From positions 1 to 37,791 of the IMG/VR virus record IMGVR_UViG_3300017754_000073: a stretch of DNA of 37,791 nt. The stretch is one strand, 5' to 3'. The DNA comes from a virus. Its lineage: Duplodnaviria; Caudoviricetes. This document shows positions 2,613 to 37,791 of the stretch, in pieces. The notes beneath the pieces were generated by a model. That model was given only the letters and a program-made list of their open reading frames with translations, made no database searches and was not told where the DNA came from. Position 1 is the stretch's first letter. Each line of letters opens with the position of its first letter. The position numbers and the translations under genes are program-made.

Positions 2613-4142
2613 CTAGCTTCCCATCCAAGAAGTGAGGGCAGCACCGTTTTGAGCGTTGCGCCGGATTGTTGTGCGGTCGTCAGTGTACTCTCGATGAGCC
2701 ACTGGGAAAGCAAACGTCACGCAGATCGCATCAGCGGCATCTGGAGAAGCAAGGCCTCTTGCCTTCATGTCCTTCTTGCTCTCCAAAAAGATGGTGCCTC
2801 TGGAATCAGGCTTGATCATAGGCGAAACCAGATCAGTCTTCAAGAACCTGTCCTTGGGGATGCTGGCAGATCTCAGCCAGTCCTTCATCTTGCCCCACAT
2901 CTCAGCGCGTTTGTTGCCGTACATGATGGGGTTGGCGCTTTTGTTGCCAAAGTTGATGCCCTTGATCTTGTAGCGCTGCTCTTTGAGCCGGTCAACGATG
3001 CCGGCTCCAAGGCCTCCTTCGTCAATGACCACCAGGGCAGGCTTGAACTCCTCAATGGCCTCAATGATGTGGCCCACCACCGTCATGGTGTCATCTCCTC
3101 GGTGGCGGTCGATCCTCACAATGTCACGGCCTTGCCGGATGGCGATCACGGTGGCATCGGCTCCAAAGCGTGCGGGGTCAACTCCAATGATGATGGGCGC
3201 GGTCTGGTCCTTGTACTTGGCCCTGCTCATGGCCTCGTCCACAATGCTCGACGGGATGAACTGGTCATCTCCAGCGTTGGGGAACTGGCCGTAAACCTCA
3301 ACGTGAGCCTGGCTGCTGTCTGGGCCATATTCGTCGATGATGTTCTGGTAAACAGCCTTGTCGGTGCCTTCGACTGTGCGGGCGTCCACCACCTTGGTGG
3401 TCCAGAAGTCTCGCTTGGAGTGGAACGTCTCGTAGAAGTAGCCAGTGTTTCGCCGTGGGTTGGAGAAAGCCAGCCACAAGCGATTAGGGGTGTTTTCGGT
3501 AAAGAATCCAGCCGTAACAGCCCAGATGCTGTCCTCGATACCGGAGGCTTCGTCAAAGATCACCATCACACCATCAAAGTTGTGGACTCCAGCGTAAGCG
3601 TCTGGGTTTTCGGCTGACCACAGCCGGCCCTCGACAGCCCAGTAGCGGGTGCCCTTCTTGAGATCCTTCTCAACCAGGTCGGTAAGCCAGTTGGCAGGGG
3701 TGATCTTGGTGGCCGCAACCTCAAACCAGTGGCTGTTGATGCTCATCGCCAACCACTTGGTGATCTCGGCCCATGTCACGGCTCTAAGCTGAGACTCGCT
3801 GTTGGCAGAGATGATCGTTGTCGAGCCTATGCGGGTGGAAAGCATCCAGATGGTGAGCCAACTGACGAGCGCAGACTTGCCGATACCACGGCCAGAAGAG
3901 ACTGCATGGCGCAGTGTCTCAAAATCTATGCGGCCCTGCTGGCGCTTGATGTGCGCAGTGATCTCTCTGAGCACTTCCCTTTGCCATTTGCGCGGACCCT
4001 TGAAGTTCGCCAGTGGCGTGTTCTCTTGGCCCCAAGGGAAAGCAAACAGCACAAAGGCTTCAGGGTCATCGGCAATCGCCGGCGTCCACAGCGTTGCCAT
4101 TAACTCCTGCTCGTCTTCGGGCTTGTAGATGGTGGTTTGCAT
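2613..4142 (-). CDS. terL: Terminase large subunit
   Basis: Walker A SGRGIGKS, Walker B VIFDEASG, motif III FSNP, RNase H-like nuclease IGVDPARFGAD and SPDAADA. Confidence 0.96.
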   Translation of the reverse strand: MQTTIYKPEDEQELMATLWTPAIADDPEAFVLFAFPWGQENTPLANFKGPRKWQREVLREITAHIKRQQGRIDFETLRHAVSSGRGIGKSALVSWLTIWMLSTRIGSTTIISANSESQLRAVTWAEITKWLAMSINSHWFEVAATKITPANWLTDLVEKDLKKGTRYWAVEGRLWSAENPDAYAGVHNFDGVMVIFDEASGIEDSIWAVTAGFFTENTPNRLWLAFSNPRRNTGYFYETFHSKRDFWTTKVVDARTVEGTDKAVYQNIIDEYGPDSSQAHVEVYGQFPNAGDDQFIPSSIVDEAMSRAKYKDQTAPIIIGVDPARFGADATVIAIRQGRDIVRIDRHRGDDTMTVVGHIIEAIEEFKPALVVIDEGGLGAGIVDRLKEQRYKIKGINFGNKSANPIMYGNKRAEMWGKMKDWLRSASIPKDRFLKTDLVSPMIKPDSRGTIFLESKKDMKARGLASPDAADAICVTFAFPVAHREYTDDRTTIRRNAQNGAALTSWMGS

Positions 4143-4170: not shown

Positions 4171-4377
4171 ATGATTCTATCCCCAATTGTCAACACCGAC
4201 ATCAAGATGCCAAAGCAAATGCTTGATGCTCTTGGCTTGCACGAAACCAGGTGCGTTGTCACCGGCGTCTCGGCTGTCACCGAGGCATCGGTGCGGGCGT
4301 TCTTGGCAGAACGGTACGGGGAAAAATTCGCCAGCAAATTCGACCCCAAATTCTTGTTCAGTATCCCAGGCGCTTGA
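4171..4377 (+). CDS. Small hypothetical protein, antisense to the packaging operon, probably leaderless
   Basis: 68 aa with protein-like composition; fills the gap between terL and the 474-aa gene; promoter directly upstream; 3' end overlaps the convergent gene by 20 nt. Confidence 0.65.
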   Translation: MILSPIVNTDIKMPKQMLDALGLHETRCVVTGVSAVTEASVRAFLAERYGEKFASKFDPKFLFSIPGA

Positions 4378-5782
4378 GCAACTGGTTGGTGATCACTCCA
4401 GAGTACGGCTTCATCTGCAACGCACGAATGTCCGTGGCTCTTGGGTTTTTCGGGTCCGGTATGCCTCTGGCCTGCACCACTTCCGGCATCAACTCAAAAA
4501 TGTTCCTGTCTTCCACCAACGTGCCCAAGCCCTGACCCGGCACCCCTCGGGGGTAAGACGGATGACCAGACTCCATGATCATCGGACGGCCAGCAAAGAT
4601 CTCGCCCACGTTCATCACACCACCCTCTTGCGCAGCCAGTTGCGCCGGATCAGACACAGCCAACCTCGCGCCACCAATGTTCAATCCTCCAGTGTCGCGG
4701 AAATTGGTGTCCATCATGTTCTTGACAGCCTTGCGCACCTTGTCCGGCGCATCGCGGAACTGCTGCACACTGGCCGGATCTGACACACCAGCCCACTCGG
4801 GAATCATCTTCTTGATCGACCGGTCCAGACTTCTTTTCTGCATCTTCCCCATCGCGCTGTCAGCATACGCCAACATCGTCTCACCAGTCATCGCAGCAAA
4901 ATCACCACCAGTCGGTGCCATGCGCCAAGGCATATACAACGGATCCTTGCCGGTCGCCTGCTTGATCTCCGCAGCCTGCTGCATCAACTGCTTGACCGGC
5001 TGCTGCGCACTGGCCCAAACCTGCCCAGGATTGTTGAACATGAAATCCTGCCCACCCATCAACTCCACAGGCCGGTTGAACTTCACATCGTCAATACCCA
5101 CCAGCTTGCCGCCAGCAGCCGTTCGGTCAGCCATGCTCGTGATAAACGGCCTGCCCTCAAAATCAGCCAGAGACACAGTGGGCGCATTCTGAGCACTAGG
5201 ATTCAACTGGATGTCGCGGGTCATCGCCTGCAAACGCTCTTGCTCCTTCACCCGTGGGTCAAACCTCGGGTCAAACACACCAAAGCCACTGCGGCCCTGC
5301 GTTGGCAATACCTGACTTCTGCTGCCCTGCACCAAACCCAGCGCCAGTTCAGCCGGCAAACCACCGCGCTCCATGATGCCCGGCAACACGCGCTCGGCGT
5401 AACGCTCACCAGCCTTGCCTGCTTGCATCGCAGCCTTAGTCGCAGCCCTTGATGCGGCCAATGTCGCCATCGTCACAGGCTGCGCTGCCGGTGCAACTGC
5501 CATCGCCGCCTCGATTGCCTCTGGCCGGATGCGTGTCGTCATCCCTGCACCAGTCGTCAAGGGTTCGCCGTAGGAAAGGCGGTCCAGTGTCTGGCTGATT
5601 GCCGGAGCACTGAGGAACTGGGCCAAGCCCTGCATCTGCTGCGTGCGCTGCGGTGCGTAAGACGCCGCCGCCAGATCAGCCAAATAACCCAGCACCTGAT
5701 TGCGCGGGGTCGCGCTCATGCTGTCTTGATACGCCAGCATGTTCGCTGGGCGCTGCGTGAGGGCGTTGCTGTAGATAGGCAT
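4358..5782 (-). CDS. Hypothetical protein, possibly an internal virion/injected protein (474 aa)
   Basis: Long ORF with genome-typical codons; Ala/Gln-rich N-terminal third resembling ejection proteins; globular C-terminal region with HPSYPRGVPG. Function not recognised. Confidence 0.8.
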   Translation of the reverse strand: MPIYSNALTQRPANMLAYQDSMSATPRNQVLGYLADLAAASYAPQRTQQMQGLAQFLSAPAISQTLDRLSYGEPLTTGAGMTTRIRPEAIEAAMAVAPAAQPVTMATLAASRAATKAAMQAGKAGERYAERVLPGIMERGGLPAELALGLVQGSRSQVLPTQGRSGFGVFDPRFDPRVKEQERLQAMTRDIQLNPSAQNAPTVSLADFEGRPFITSMADRTAAGGKLVGIDDVKFNRPVELMGGQDFMFNNPGQVWASAQQPVKQLMQQAAEIKQATGKDPLYMPWRMAPTGGDFAAMTGETMLAYADSAMGKMQKRSLDRSIKKMIPEWAGVSDPASVQQFRDAPDKVRKAVKNMMDTNFRDTGGLNIGGARLAVSDPAQLAAQEGGVMNVGEIFAGRPMIMESGHPSYPRGVPGQGLGTLVEDRNIFELMPEVVQARGIPDPKNPRATDIRALQMKPYSGVITNQLLKRLGY

Positions 5783-5794
5783 AGGGCGATGTTA

Positions 5795-5880
5795 AATCAA
5801 AAATCAAAAAACAAAAAATTAAAAAATGTCGGAGGGGGTACCGTGACCGTGGCCGTTCCCCGCCGGCCCCCACCCCCCCC
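5795..5880 (-). other. G-tract followed by repeated T-tracts; candidate packaging/terminus-associated sequence
   Basis: Minus strand reads G8-T-G5-CCGGC-G4...GGTACCCCC...TTTTTTAATTTTTTGTTTTTTGATTTTTGATTT, in non-coding DNA downstream of terS. Confidence 0.4.
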
Positions 5881-5910
5881 GCCTCGCCGGCCAAAAACGC
5901 CGGTTGCACG

Positions 5911-5999
5911 TTGTCCACAGGGTTTTTGTGCAGGTTATCCACAGCAGCCTGTGGATAACTGGGTTTGTAACCCGCAAGTGCTAGTAAATCTGTGGATAA
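5911..5999. promoter_or_regulatory. DnaA-box cluster
   Basis: TTGTCCACA 5911-5919 (1 mismatch), TTATCCACA 5935-5943, TGTGGATAA 5950-5958, TGTGGATAA 5991-5999. Confidence 0.85.
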
Positions 6000-6009
6000 C
6001 TTGGCATCG

Positions 6010-6037
6010 ACTTAACATAATGGACGTTGTATGAAGT
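6010..6037 (-). other. dif: dif-like XerC/XerD recombination site
   Basis: Minus strand ACTTCATACAA-CGTCCA-TTATGTTAAGT: 11-6-11 layout; right arm 10/11 identical to the E. coli XerD arm TTATGTTAAAT; arms are 8/11 inverted repeats. Confidence 0.8.
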
Positions 6038-6052
6038 AGACCTGCGTTTGCG

Positions 6053-6068
6053 TCAGGGTTAACCCTGA
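6053..6068. repeat. Perfect 16-bp palindrome TCAGGGTTAACCCTGA
   Basis: Read directly; 15 bp from the dif-like site. Confidence 0.7.
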
Positions 6069-6152
6069 TGCGTCTGCGTTGGGCGCGGGCGCGTATTGCT
6101 AAACTTTTCGTGCGGAAAGCGCCCAAACCCCGCATGATTACCCTCACCAAAG

Positions 6153-6671
6153 TCACGAATCAACCGTCTTTGACTCAACATCGACGACATTGCTCTCGTC
6201 CTTTAAGACACGTTGTTTCGCTTCTTTCAGTGCATCCATGACGCTGATGCGTGTATCGGTCACGGCAACGTCGATGCGGTCGCCATAGCGTTTGGCGTAC
6301 AGCTTGGATGCAACCCACTTGCGAGCATCCACCTGCATCCGTTTTTGTTGAACCCAAGCAGATGCCATTGGTCCTTCCAAGTGTGCCGGCATTTCAGCGT
6401 CCGACAACTCGATGATCTCTTCAGCCAAACGATCTGCTCTGTTCTCGGTCGCCTTGTCATACATGGCTCGGAACTCTGCATTGTTCCGAATCATCACCAT
6501 TGCGCATTGAAGGCTTGGCATTCCTTCGGCTTTGAGTGTGGTGGTCAGGCTTTTGCCAGTTGAGATCTGTTTGCAGATTTCCTGCCAGCATGGGTGTTCA
6601 ATCGGAAACACGGGCTTTCGACCTGGCCCTTTTTTTGTCACTGTCATTTCTGACGCCAAGTTCTGAGTCAC
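6153..6671 (-). CDS. terS: Terminase small subunit (Sf6-like)
   Basis: EICKQISTGKSL...GMPS...EFRAMYDKA...ADRLAEEIIELSD...VDARKWVASKLYAKRYGD is the Sf6-type TerS pattern; GTG start with GGAG RBS. Confidence 0.92.
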   Translation of the reverse strand: MTQNLASEMTVTKKGPGRKPVFPIEHPCWQEICKQISTGKSLTTTLKAEGMPSLQCAMVMIRNNAEFRAMYDKATENRADRLAEEIIELSDAEMPAHLEGPMASAWVQQKRMQVDARKWVASKLYAKRYGDRIDVAVTDTRISVMDALKEAKQRVLKDESNVVDVESKTVDS

Positions 6672-7092: not shown

Positions 7093-7119
7093 CCTGACTC
7101 CTCAAAATCCTAAAACCCG

Positions 7120-7430
7120 TGTACCGACGATTCGACCCGACTTTGTGTACCGAACCGAAGGGGGTATATATACCCCTTCGGTACGTTTCGGTACAACGGG
7201 CAAGTCGGGCATCGGTACGTTTCGGTATGTTTCGGTACATCGGTACATGGTTTCGGTACGATTTGACTGTACCGAACGTACCGAAATCGGTACACATCGG
7301 TACGGTACGGTACATTTCGCCCTCAAAATAATTGCCGTTTCGGTACATCGGTACATCAATTCTGGCTGTTTCTGGCATAGTCATTGCTTAAACCGGCTCC
7401 GAATTTGATGCTTTCGGTACGGTTCGGTAC
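7120..7430. repeat. Iteron-like array (TCGGTAC/GTACCGA) with central palindrome; putative replication origin
   Basis: Roughly 18-20 copies of CGGTAC or its complement in about 310 bp; ACCGAAGGGGG-TATATATA-CCCCTTCGGT at 7154-7182; directly downstream of the primase-helicase gene. Confidence 0.8.
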
Positions 7431-9433
7431 AACTCATGACGCAGGCTGACCATATCCTTTTTGGTCAAGCCGTCCACCGACTCCTTAAACCGTCGAGCGT
7501 TCAGGCCGTGATTCTTGGCAGATTCCCGCCACTCATCGTAGTTCGCTGATACGGCCATGCCATCCATCCCATCAGCCTGTTTCTTGGCCTCGATGGCTAC
7601 CAAGCAGTTCAGTGCGATCAACTGGTTGCCGGGCAAGATCGTGCGCTTTTGGACGCTGCTCACCAGCCCCGAGATGTCCACTGTCGTGAGGTATGCCCCT
7701 TTGACTTCGTTGCCGTGCTTGTCGAGGATGGGCAGATCCACTTGGGTGATCTGGAAGTTCTTGGCCGCTGGCATTTCAGCGTCCTTCATCTTCTTGCTCT
7801 CAAACTGGATGGTCTTGGTGCCCGAATCCAATTGGCACTTGTACTCCGCATCCAATGCGCCCTTCAATGCTGTCGAACCCCTTGACCGATCCTTGTCCAT
7901 TGCTCCGCTGTGGTGGACCACCAGCACGCAGCACTTGTAGTCTTGGCGCAGATAGGTATCCAAGTGCTGGATGAACGAGTTCATGTCTTGGGTTGAGTTC
8001 TCGTCGCCGCCCATGTTCCGAGCCAGAGTGTCGATGACGATCATGGACGGAACATGCCCGCATTCGGCTGACAAAGTCTTGATGGCATCAGCCACCAACG
8101 CAGCCTCTGTCGCGTCATACAGTTGCGCTGCCCTGTGGCTCTTGAACAACGGTGCGCCGTCCAGTGTGGTGCCGTTGCCCAGTTCCCAGCCCTTAAACCT
8201 TCTTGCCAAGCCGTTGTGGCCTTCGCCGGCGATGTAAAACACCGCTCCTTGCTGAACTTGGTGGCCGTGCCAGTCTTTGCCGGTAGCAACGCAGCAGGCC
8301 AAGTCGATGCTGACGAATGACTTGCCCCCGCCTGGATCGCCGAACACCTGCGCCAGAGAGTCAGCCTCGATGTAGTCATCCACAATCCACCGAATCTCGC
8401 TCAGTGTCAGACTGTCTGCCCGAGAGAACTCAAACGCCAGCTTGTCACGCACTGGCCCTGCCACGCGCTCAATTTGTTCTTTCACGGCATCCAGTCCTTG
8501 CAGGCAGTGCAGGTCGTTCCAGTCTGTTGGCTTGTTGTCCACCATGTCCGCATCCCCAAAGCTGGGGTACACAATCTCGCCAAACACCAGCGCCGCAGCC
8601 GCACGGCCCTTGGTCACGCCAGGGTTGCCCTCGGTGAACTGGTCATTGTCTGCACCGATCACAATCTTTGCCGCAGGGAACATCTCTTTGGCCGCTTTGG
8701 CTACCTTGGCAAGGTTGCCGCAATCAAACGCCACCATGACCGTGTAGCCCGTTGCCTCATAAATTGACGCGCAAGTGGCAAACCCCTCACCCACAAACAC
8801 GATCTTGCGATTGCCTCGCAACTCAAAGAACCCGCCTTCGATCTTGCCGCCCTTCAAGAACCGTTTGTTGCCGTCCGAGTCAATGGTCTGGTACGACAAG
8901 ATCTCTCCAGCCTGATCAATGACTGGCACCACCAGCCGCCCAGCCCTGTCAATCTTGATCCCATGTGCGCTGATGTGTTTCCTCACCAAGTACGGGTGGT
9001 CGTCACTTGCGTCAGCATAGGTGCCCACCTCATCTTCTGCACGCTCTGCCGCCACTGCTTGGCTGGCCAATCTCTCTGCTTCTTTCTTGGCCTTGAGTTC
9101 TGCCACCCATTTGTCATGCTCAAATCTCTCGGTGAAAGACATGGTTCGCCCAATGTCAGCCACCCATTTGCTCTCAAAGGTAGGCTCTTTCCAGCACCCA
9201 GCGATGCCCACTGGCACTTTCCCACTGGTGTGCAAGATGTACCACCCATCTAGCGAGCCTTTCTTGGACGACACATGAGCCACGCGATGAATCTCGCCAT
9301 CAGCAATCAGGTCTTTGATCAGCAACCCATTGGCCTCACAGTGAGTGCGAAAAGCCGCTTCAGGGTTGATCAGGTCTTGGCTTTCTGTTGCAGCCGCAAA
9401 GCCATTGGGGAATATGGAAGTCAGGTTTGTCAT
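7388..9433 (-). CDS. Primase-helicase (TOPRIM primase + RepA/AAA_25-type helicase)
   Basis: TOPRIM motifs VGEGFAT, VAFDCGNL, IGADND, TDWND; Walker A GDPGGGKS; Walker B IVIDT; VHHSG...RGSTAL. Confidence 0.92.
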   Translation of the reverse strand: MTNLTSIFPNGFAAATESQDLINPEAAFRTHCEANGLLIKDLIADGEIHRVAHVSSKKGSLDGWYILHTSGKVPVGIAGCWKEPTFESKWVADIGRTMSFTERFEHDKWVAELKAKKEAERLASQAVAAERAEDEVGTYADASDDHPYLVRKHISAHGIKIDRAGRLVVPVIDQAGEILSYQTIDSDGNKRFLKGGKIEGGFFELRGNRKIVFVGEGFATCASIYEATGYTVMVAFDCGNLAKVAKAAKEMFPAAKIVIGADNDQFTEGNPGVTKGRAAAALVFGEIVYPSFGDADMVDNKPTDWNDLHCLQGLDAVKEQIERVAGPVRDKLAFEFSRADSLTLSEIRWIVDDYIEADSLAQVFGDPGGGKSFVSIDLACCVATGKDWHGHQVQQGAVFYIAGEGHNGLARRFKGWELGNGTTLDGAPLFKSHRAAQLYDATEAALVADAIKTLSAECGHVPSMIVIDTLARNMGGDENSTQDMNSFIQHLDTYLRQDYKCCVLVVHHSGAMDKDRSRGSTALKGALDAEYKCQLDSGTKTIQFESKKMKDAEMPAAKNFQITQVDLPILDKHGNEVKGAYLTTVDISGLVSSVQKRTILPGNQLIALNCLVAIEAKKQADGMDGMAVSANYDEWRESAKNHGLNARRFKESVDGLTKKDMVSLRHELYRTVPKASNSEPV

Positions 9434-29514: not shown

Positions 29515-30714
29515 TTAGCCCCAGATGCGGCAACCCATTTGTGGACGAATCGTGTTGTAGCCATACAGCACGTCAACACGGCAAGGCATACGGTCGTTGT
29601 TGATGTCGTACTGACGAACAACGCGCAGGCTGATACCGTTGTGAACGGCACGGCTAGCCATGTCAACGCCTTGTGGCAGCAACAGGTCAGCAGTGGCGAA
29701 CGCGATGGCGTCACGGTGGTACACCATGTTCTGTGGATAGCTGGTCGAAGCAGCGCCAGTGAACACAACAGCCTTGCTGTTACCGGGCAGGGACACCATA
29801 GTGCACAGGGCGTTACCAGCCGAGTACATAGGAGCCACGGTCACAGTAGCTGTGGTGGTGACAGTCGAAGACGACAGGGCCACGAACTGGAACAGCGAAC
29901 CGGTGGACTCACGAGTCTGTGGGTTGGCAGCGTAGCAGTCAGCGATAGTGAACACGTCACCAGCGTTGATGGTTTCGCCAGAACCGACAGTCAGAGTCAG
30001 AGTGGTTGCGCCTTCGGAGGTCACAGCAGCGCCGGTTGTGTTGCCAGTGGCAGCACGGGTACCGCAGGTGTGAACCTTGATCGACTGGCTCATGTTGACT
30101 TCTTCGTAGCCCAACACTTGCTCACCCATCATGCCGTTCTTGAACTGGCGAGAGATGACGTCTGTGGGGTTGAAGAAACCAGACAGGCCGTTGACCAATG
30201 CAGCGTTGGCGGCAGGGTTCACGGTAGCGTAGCGAGGCGACATGGTGGCGGCGTTCTCGTTCAGCTTCTGCTGGGCTTGCAACAGCACCAAGGCGGTCGA
30301 TGGGGCAGCGCCGGGAGTACCGACAGAGTTACCGATCAGCTTGTATGCGTTCGCAACGTCAGCGTCCACAGTGGAGGCCAACTGGCTGATACGTGGCTTC
30401 AAGACACGCTCTGCGAAGTCGTCCAACTGCATGGTCAATTCAGCGGATGTGAAGTTGATGCCGATGTGCTTCTGGCTGGAGACAGTCAGAGTGGTGAACT
30501 GTTCGTTGTCGTCCTGAACTTGCAGGGCGGCACCGTCAGTCACCAGAGCGCGGTCGGGCAAACGGATACGCAGTGTGGAACCGATCTTGGCACCTTCAAC
30601 AGCGAAGCTGTCGTCGTACTGGCGGTTCACGTTGCGGGTGATCACGAGGTTGTTTTCGAGAATCTCTAAACTCTTTCTTGTGATCATGTCAATGGTAAGC
30701 AAGCTATTGGACAT
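29515..30714 (-). CDS. Major capsid protein (P22 coat-like)
   Basis: MSNSLLTIDMITRKSLEILENNL...KIGSTLRIRLP...RVDVLYG; strongly biased codons. Confidence 0.93.
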   Translation of the reverse strand: MSNSLLTIDMITRKSLEILENNLVITRNVNRQYDDSFAVEGAKIGSTLRIRLPDRALVTDGAALQVQDDNEQFTTLTVSSQKHIGINFTSAELTMQLDDFAERVLKPRISQLASTVDADVANAYKLIGNSVGTPGAAPSTALVLLQAQQKLNENAATMSPRYATVNPAANAALVNGLSGFFNPTDVISRQFKNGMMGEQVLGYEEVNMSQSIKVHTCGTRAATGNTTGAAVTSEGATTLTLTVGSGETINAGDVFTIADCYAANPQTRESTGSLFQFVALSSSTVTTTATVTVAPMYSAGNALCTMVSLPGNSKAVVFTGAASTSYPQNMVYHRDAIAFATADLLLPQGVDMASRAVHNGISLRVVRQYDINNDRMPCRVDVLYGYNTIRPQMGCRIWG

Positions 30715-37448: not shown

Positions 37449-37791
37449 TTATGCGAGGAATTTTAGCTTGTATATGGCAGACAGGTAAACAGCAATGATC
37501 TCGTCAATGATGTTCTGCAAAGTCGTGTCAGTTTTACCGCAGACCTTGTACCGGTTTTCCTCGATGTAGGCCAGCGAGTCTTCCAAGAACGGCAGAATGG
37601 CACCGTCCTTGCGGGCTGACTTGAGCGAGATGGGGCCAATTAGACCATGACGGCCTTGGTATGCCTCGGCAAACTTGTCGGCAGCTTCCAAAACATCTCT
37701 GTAAAAGTGCCGCAGCGCCTTGTGTTTTGAGTAGGAACGGGTGTTGAGGTGGACGGAATGGGCCACATCCCGTGCCAAGAACAACTCACCA
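37449..37791 (-). CDS. Ferritin/Dps-like four-helix protein (5' end beyond window)
   Basis: HSVHLNTRSYSKHKAL..FY......DKFAEAYQG...LQNIIDEI; frame open to the window end. Confidence 0.78.
   Translation of the reverse strand, partial: GELFLARDVAHSVHLNTRSYSKHKALRHFYRDVLEAADKFAEAYQGRHGLIGPISLKSARKDGAILPFLEDSLAYIEENRYKVCGKTDTTLQNIIDEIIAVYLSAIYKLKFLA

Follow-up and report, generated by a model that had tools for sequence, protein, structure and literature searches.

Phage P1 circularizes its terminally redundant genome by Cre-loxP recombination, with loxP located near the packaging site and at both ends of the virion genome. At the plasmid sites cer and psi, the accessory DNA sits on the XerC side of the recombination core, and the side of the accessory sequences and the order of strand exchange at psi were reportedly the subject of a 2002 study by Bregu. 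As described in PMC5357621, ColE1 cer (PepA plus ArgR) and pSC101 psi (PepA plus ArcA) combine an XerCD core containing a non-dif center with ~100 bp of host-protein sites, and accessory DNA at a fixed position can replace FtsK, but on supercoiled DNA. Our search of the open-access literature yielded no earlier account of a tailed-phage cassette combining DnaA boxes with dif, and likewise none of DnaA-dependent Xer control or of an Xer role at a tailed-phage packaging site; the nearest work in it was a preprint by Davison on DnaA boxes in phage T5 (bioRxiv 10.1101/866236). Here, we describe a cassette that joins these elements; it is genuine, under strong selection and apparently new to the literature. 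A sequence-only reading of the same DNA had put forward the combination of DnaA boxes and dif as a candidate undescribed system, and it proves to be conserved, rigidly spaced and mobile as a block.

The window is the whole analyzed stretch of DNA, the 37,791 bases of IMG/VR record IMGVR_UViG_3300017754_000073, which carries a podovirus gene set as judged by a PHROG scan of 56 chosen ORFs; the metagenome runs that contain this stretch are mostly from freshwater and rivers. Between the genes for the terminase small subunit (terS, 6153-6671, minus strand; phrog_1482, PF20901) and large subunit (terL, 2613-4142, minus strand; phrog_2) lies a noncoding, 28-mer dif-like XerCD site (6010-6037, minus strand) of 11-6-11 layout, composed of an XerC arm (6027-6037), a center (CGTCCA, 6021-6026) and a conserved XerD arm (6010-6020), the last of which faces four DnaA boxes. 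Box 1 (5991-5999, minus strand) is perfect and located at +10 from the XerD arm. Box 2 (5950-5958, minus strand), also perfect, is at +51 in the same orientation, 41 bp or about four helical turns from box 1. Boxes 3 and 4 are inverted: box 3, TTATCCACA (5935-5943, plus strand), is perfect, at +66 and 6 bp from box 2, while box 4, TTGTCCACA (5911-5919, plus strand), has one mismatch and is at +90. The sequence-only reading had reported precisely this set of three perfect boxes and one single-mismatch box, with an inverted pair 6 bp apart and a 10-bp gap to dif, and its coordinates are exact. The genome-wide count that it had proposed gives a clear result, as the three perfect boxes in the cassette are the only ones in 37,791 bases, compared with a mean of 0.11 in 100 dinucleotide shuffles, none of which reached 3, and with 0.09 expected under a second-order Markov model. 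These values rule out a chance origin of the cluster.

Compared by eye, the window site and the dif of Rhodoferax ferrireducens given in PMC2731167 agree at 23 of their 28 bases (XerD arm 11/11, XerC arm 9/11, center 3/6), and the XerC arm of the window differs by one base from the arm seen most often at chromosomal sites in metagenomes (49 of 113 sites, among the matches listed). This near-match of the arms points to hosts of the Comamonadaceae type. A coding function of the cassette was rejected, the best reading frame being open in just 10 of 54 relatives, as was a structured RNA, for which no near-threshold Rfam match was obtained. As a correction to the sequence-only reading, the cassette is adjoined directly downstream by an ORF of 474 aa (4358-5782) that is without a PHROG or Pfam match, terL lying at 2613-4142. 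This ORF occupies a variable slot between terL and the end element described below; it is missing from some relatives, and its first 43 bases are repeated at another gene in a related strain.

Conservation was examined in the best 80 of 250 relatives by terS (70-98% identity) together with the window, with the alignment anchored on the XerD arm only. The XerD arm lies within 455 nt of terS in all 81 sequences of this set; 67 of them share the orientation of the window (type A) and in 14 the cassette is inverted as a block (type B). The slot of box 1 at +10 is filled by a sequence with at most one mismatch from a perfect box in 53 of 53 unique type A cassettes, and hence the boxes are conserved in relatives, where their absence had been named beforehand as one of the grounds for abandoning the idea. 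The variation in this box falls mostly at position 5, and also at the once-removed position 6; the DnaA consensus, as quoted by Davison (bioRxiv 10.1101/866236), leaves position 5 free. The spacing is rigid: the gap from the XerD arm to box 1 is 10 bp in 54/54 terS relatives, the spacer between boxes 1 and 2 is 32 bp in 52/53, and the distance from box 1 to the last box is 79 or 80 bp in 52/52. This spacing holds while the flanks vary (45-58 bp in 6 lengths and 29-51 bp in 10 lengths) and while spacer identity between lineages falls to 8-28 of 42 positions. The XerC arm ends in CAA in 46 of the 53 unique type A cassettes. The 12 unique type B cassettes have boxes at +10, +51 and +89 with a spacer sequence unlike that of type A; six of their +10 boxes carry two mismatches and box 3 (+66) is degenerate. 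The reverse boxes showed weak helical periodicity, and in 8 genomes GC skew at fourfold sites showed no consistent switch at dif.

The boxes and the dif-like site are linked in both directions, as two scans show. A dif-only pattern, with no box in it, yielded 119 of ~490 loci (103 unique, 98 with enough DNA), and among these matches 79/98 have the +10 box and 19/98 do not, 87/98 have two or more boxes and 3/98 have none. Conversely, a box-geometry pattern with no dif in it yielded 119 of ~220 loci (2 too close to an end, 85 unique), and in 84 of the 85, among the matches listed, an XerD arm is found 10 bp away; the two sets overlap and their carriers are related through shared hosts, so these counts are not independent events. 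The co-occurrence and spacing in related phages that the sequence-only reading had proposed to examine are thus borne out. The same geometry is present in phages whose TerL is ~30% identical to that of the window, and in other lineages the cassette is found in either direction or upstream of terS. We also considered that the boxes are TerS-binding repeats that mimic DnaA boxes and rejected it, as the TerS proteins of the carriers are just 25-39% identical to that of the window and the variation follows the DnaA consensus.

Several loci depart from this arrangement. In one lineage (G007 9175-9259, L225) the center is different and two DnaA boxes of like orientation lie ~20 bp from each arm, and in a 66-kb contig (L198, 200-520) many repeats of XerD-arm-like words occur with three DnaA boxes in ~300 bp. 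Other phages (L207, 2797-3080; L540; L486/L516; L148/L208) have DnaA boxes clustered to one side of a dif-like site or flanking it on both, in some cases in 11-bp steps. Among cultured phages, a DNA search with the cassette gave no match, and the two closest INPHARED relatives by TerL (MW202483, DSL-LC05) are without the cassette in the stretch examined. Phage C72C1 (OQ984150; L594, ~2810-2840) has a dif-like site with the center of the window between terS and terL, and no boxes; it could serve as a model for experiments. In a plasmid search the dif part alone was matched, mostly in Acinetobacter plasmids, at E values of 0.1-5.

For comparison with host chromosomes, metagenomes were scanned with the same arms and the chromosomal center, giving 120 of ~300 loci, 113 of them unique. 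KOPS flip across these host-centered sites (120:9 and 93:14), which identifies them as chromosomal dif. A DnaA box on the XerD side is present at 1 of 109 of these chromosomal sites, compared with boxes at 95 of 98 phage sites, both among the matches listed, and host chromosomes were accordingly rejected as sharers of the dif-plus-box arrangement. The chromosomal XerC arm ends in CGA in 112/113 sites (among the matches listed) versus CAA in most phage arms. Among the matches listed, the phage center is never that of the host, TGTATA (0/103), and ends in CA in 98/103. On the XerD side of the phage cassettes, nearby KOPS point away in 58 cases and toward in 8, of 123, and the window has one KOPS, at 29785. 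Phage sites thus show neither the converging KOPS nor the center of a chromosomal dif.

The close match between phage and host arms would fit an attachment site for integration at host dif in the manner of the IMEXs, with XerC acting first and replication resolving the product, as for VGJ. In VGJ, too, attP and dif differ in the XerD-proximal part of the center (PMC5357621), and 14 of 103 phage centers, TGTCCA, share the first three bases of the host (among the matches listed). Most of the listed centers, though, differ on the XerC side as well, and integration at this position would separate terS from terL. We found no integrated form of the phage in GTDB genomes, in the metagenome hybrid scan or in the flanks of 113 chromosomal dif sites: the hybrid pattern had 0 matches in metagenome contigs, the arm-plus-box pattern had 3 matches in GTDB genomes, all in unrelated taxa, and no match to terS, terL or primase lay beside the 113 chromosomal sites (among the matches listed). 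Integration at host dif and center homology on one side, the two marks of an IMEX attP, were not seen together in the phage sites, and we regard such an attachment site as very improbable.

The slot occupied by the cassette is itself informative. A G-run/GC-rich/T-tract element (5794-5885, minus strand) is conserved in both cassette orientations and is a putative terminase cut signal or signal for the end of a terminal repeat, and a GC-rich motif after terS (6082-6095, minus strand) remains on the terS side in inverted cassettes. This motif and a similar G/C-run element are also present in Ralstonia phages DU_RP_II and RpY1, both of which are without dif or boxes; the cassette is inserted between two older motifs common to these phages. 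The cultured and distantly related Sinorhizobium phage phiM5, whose TerL is 55% identical to that of carrier G008 and 32% identical to that of the window, has a 357-bp direct terminal repeat annotated in the same slot in its GenBank record. This repeat contains no dif and no DnaA boxes and ends just past a similar C-run/G-run/A-tract element, upstream of terL. Reckoned from its XerC arm as far as the G/C-run element, the cassette spans ~220 bp, and a repeat of the phiM5 length would take it in. By analogy with phiM5, the slot is probably a genome end or terminal repeat. The sequence-only reading had missed this probable nature of the slot. Contig ends are mildly enriched near the cassette (of 157, 20 lie up to 400 bp away on the XerC side and 7 up to 200 bp away on the XerD side) but scattered, with no sharp position, and the assembled contigs of four runs showed no site at which many molecules terminate. 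Short terminal repeats of 55-127 bp in G001, G004-G006 and G009 resemble assembly overlaps.

A genome-end location raises the possibility that DnaA, XerCD and other host proteins form a complex there for packaging or ejection, either shaping the DNA at the terminase site or anchoring it to the membrane. In G006-G009, as in the family of the window, the cassette adjoins the G/C-run element, and its flanks fall into length classes separated by roughly one helical turn (45-47 and 56-58; 29-31, 38-41 and 47-51). IHF acts at lambda cos. For T5, DnaA boxes have been proposed as part of the injection-stop signal (bioRxiv 10.1101/866236), but that model is itself a proposal in a preprint. Against such a complex, other lineages have the cassette inverted or across terS from its place here, and DU_RP_II, RpY1 and phiM5 share the end element without the cassette; we consider it distinctly unlikely. 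Inversion and relocation bear equally on DnaA-dependent control of terS-terL transcription. The cassette does lie between the two genes, and a weak promoter-like match on the antisense strand overlaps box 1 and dif, but this match is composed of the letters of the box and dif themselves, the dif site would be left unexplained, and the block is inverted or moved elsewhere, making transcriptional control scarcely credible. Of the earlier proposal that DnaA governs transcription or packaging here, the packaging and genome-end half alone keeps some plausibility.

The remaining genes of the window bear on whether the cassette could be an origin. The window encodes a TOPRIM/AAA primase-helicase (7388-9433), Sak4 and Cas4-like recombination genes and a cro-like repressor gene (PHROG), and no match to an integrase, a partition gene or a DNA polymerase was obtained among its 56 scanned ORFs. 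Tyrosine recombinases (PF00589) are absent in 11/11 near-complete carriers (the window and 10/10 others), with positive controls in 14/14 genomes. Behind the primase-helicase gene is a repeat array (~7115-7442), likely the phage's own origin; arrays occur at the same place in G001, G005, G009 and G010, with units that are partly different (in G001 and G009), and none is present in G004. The primase-helicase and separate repeat array noted in the sequence-only reading are therefore both confirmed. The packaging/virion region also contains a GroES-like gene (1990-2238) and a gene resembling DUF5856/starvation-inducible regulators (37449-37784).

The lack of a tyrosine recombinase gene and the presence of a cro-like repressor would suit an integrase-free prophage kept as an episome, with a DnaA-dependent low-copy origin and dif for dimer resolution, and the opposing box arrays look like half-origins. 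Indeed, an array of DnaA boxes, as in oriC, is present, but the adjacent unwinding element or DnaA-trios are not: a simple pattern of three consecutive TAR trios had no match in 142 cassettes (0/142), and the DNA past the last box is GC-rich in type A and differs between orientations. In addition, the separate repeat array lies at the primase-helicase and no partition gene was found in the 56 ORFs. GTDB genomes gave no matching contig from a plausible host, although plasmids are frequently absent from that collection. We judge an episome of this kind improbable, and the earlier proposal of a host-dependent origin lacks support, given the absence of DnaA-trio-like runs, the GC-rich DNA beyond the last box and the lack of a partition gene.

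Other candidate protein sites are found within the module. A 16-bp palindrome, KARTRC-N4-GYAYTM, is present in 102/159 cassettes, occupying +26 in 51 and, toward the XerC arm, -20 in 43 (for example, L216, L228, L229 and L231), compared with a background of 0.15 per 228 nt, the pattern having been derived post hoc from the same sequences in which it was counted. It is not enriched in host terminus DNA, and the window contains a degenerate copy with 3 mismatches (5968-5983). A second palindrome, centered on AGGGTTAACCCT (6050-6071), lies on the XerC side; only some relatives retain it, and G001 and G004 have it at the identical position. SlmA-type palindromes, scored by the consensus given in PMC3020112, are present in 13/13 unique type B regions and 0 times in 105 kb of flank; one to four of them flank the inverted cassette in L033, L037, L045, L048, L063, L065 and L080, within 455 nt after terS. 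In the unrelated 41-kb phage G006, dif, a DnaA box and SlmA-type sites occur together at 1-130. SlmA-like matches in 6/56 type A regions were left uncounted, at least that of L002 overlapping the 16-bp palindrome, and the window has no SlmA-type site. Such sites around the cassette are a possible DNA-encoded division block or mimic of nucleoid occlusion.

These observations bring in a docking pad for host proteins, in which, with a growing number of phage copies, the boxes would titrate DnaA as datA does, dif would tie up XerCD and, in some phages, SlmA sites would block division, producing cell-cycle arrest with no strand exchange. The SlmA-type sites of the inverted cassettes and of G006 and the 16-bp palindrome as a third element favor it, and according to PMC3573117 multicopy SlmA sites stop division in E. 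coli. Conversely, a sink needs neither an invariant 10-bp gap nor a fixed side of dif, there are just 3-5 boxes per genome, the window is without an SlmA-type site, and the conserved 11-6-11 geometry with a non-host center suggests recombination and not binding alone. We hold this docking pad to be unlikely, if still deserving of attention; the DnaA sink proposed from the sequence is similarly possible in itself but leaves the fixed 10-bp gap unexplained.

To place the cassette among other viral dif-like sites, a generic scan of viral contigs gave 120 of ~1800 loci, 115 of them unique. Within ~125 bp of these 115 sites there are 27 DnaA boxes versus 2.9 expected, confined to 14 loci among the matches listed. 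From the first 80 loci, 40 were kept after host-type centers, GC below 0.33 and loci shorter than 3 kb were dropped. A terminase gene is near the dif-like site in 23 of these 40, with up to three nearest or largest ORFs tested per locus, and 3/40 are inoviruses (among the matches listed). In the 23 terminase-linked loci (L471-L547), the site is often between terS and terL. Among the matches listed, 3/23 of these sites have DnaA boxes on the XerD side, 20/23 have no strict box, and KOPS point toward the XerD arm in 2/23. In view of the 20 sites without boxes, DnaA is no general requirement of phage Xer sites. The idea that the DnaA array stands in for a KOPS loader of other phages is unsupported, given the 2/23 with KOPS toward the arm. 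These sequences show a wide occurrence of dif-like sites next to terminase genes, with the rigid DnaA array as a feature of this host group.

In our estimate, DnaA very probably binds the boxes of the cassette, and XerCD is likely to act at the dif-like site. We tentatively read the cassette as serving phage-by-phage recombination by host XerCD, for circularization and multimer handling, with DnaA as a phased accessory factor and the cassette probably inside the predicted terminal repeat; to this reading as a whole we give somewhat less than an even chance. Host DnaA and XerCD would bind the cassette and, if by analogy with phiM5 the slot is a genome end, each virion would carry two directly repeated cassette copies, at which XerCD would join the two ends of the incoming genome. 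The changed center would block completed recombination with the chromosome and permit self-recombination, first in circle formation and later in the handling of concatemers or dimers. DnaA at +10 and +51, together with the opposing boxes, could assemble into an oligomer bridging the Xer synapse or gating it, replacing PepA/ArgR or FtsK. FtsK, according to PMC2673442, requires 8 bottom-strand and 3 top-strand nucleotides beside XerD. The box at +10 begins just past these 8 nt, and since FtsK uses them, DnaA bound there would stand in its path. DnaA at +10 may activate recombination, gate it or shield the site from FtsK.

Several points weigh against the accessory role. Known accessory systems need supercoiled circles, as set out in PMC5357621, which the incoming linear genome is not. 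The fixed spacing could mirror a docking complex without a role in strand exchange, and most other terminase-linked dif sites, as well as that of C72C1, are boxless; 19/98 of the dif-selected loci are without the +10 box. The stricter proposal, in which DnaA is a direct XerCD accessory and the genome ends would be joined without FtsK or PepA and only with active host DnaA, is doubtful, though it is a possibility we take seriously. Of the four explanations offered by the sequence-only reading, an Xer accessory function fits best, with the reservations that the accessory DNA flanks the XerD arm and that most other phage dif sites have no boxes; overall, that interpretation is partly supported.

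If the accessory reading is true, the cassette would represent a third way to activate XerCD. It would explain how integrase-free, polymerase-free lake phages circularize before expression of their own genes and, under the stricter proposal, it would couple phage circularization to the growth state of the host through active DnaA. At 130 bp, the element is small enough for ordinary plasmid resolution assays. Under the rival explanations, too, it would be a strongly selected, lineage-crossing platform for host proteins. The dif-terminase link (23/40, among the matches listed) is itself a testable pattern, and the dif arms also indicate the host family.

Comparison with described systems places the cassette near several of them. 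From the chromosomal dif of the Comamonadaceae type described in PMC2731167, with which it shares near-identical arms, the 11-6-11 layout and a noncoding position, it is set apart by a center that is never TGTATA, an XerC arm ending in CAA rather than CGA, the lack of converging KOPS and the presence of boxes. Like the IMEXs CTX, VGJ and TLC (PMC5357621), it is a phage-borne dif-like site without an integrase of its own, but no integrated form was found, center homology is mostly absent and the carrier is a tailed phage. It has in common with E. coli datA, DARS1 and DARS2, as presented in PMC4585315 and PMC13220808, a few DnaA boxes with conserved spacing outside the origin, and differs from them in being coupled to an Xer site and borne by a phage. 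The T5 injection-stop region described by Davison (bioRxiv 10.1101/866236) likewise has conserved, phased, noncoding DnaA boxes at a phage end and off the origin; the text of that preprint has 0 occurrences of Xer, its geometry differs, and these podoviruses are not known to inject their DNA in two steps. Similar to P1 loxP, the cassette is near the packaging site and predicted at both virion ends, but the recombinase would be that of the host, there is no Cre-like gene and an accessory array is present. There is also a likeness to cer and psi: the cassette has its core at a fixed spacing to predicted host-protein sites, shares with them an XerC arm ending in CAA (table in PMC2410131), and is an element without its own recombinase that is predicted to recombine with itself. 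Its conserved accessory candidates are the DnaA boxes and the 16-bp palindrome, PepA sites being unrecognizable by a sequence scan. Unlike cer and psi, it is found in a tailed phage, by the terminase genes, and its accessory sites are DnaA boxes on the XerD side. The cassette resembles, in its sequence, an accessory-bearing Xer site, yet on present tests it is no member of the cer/psi group.
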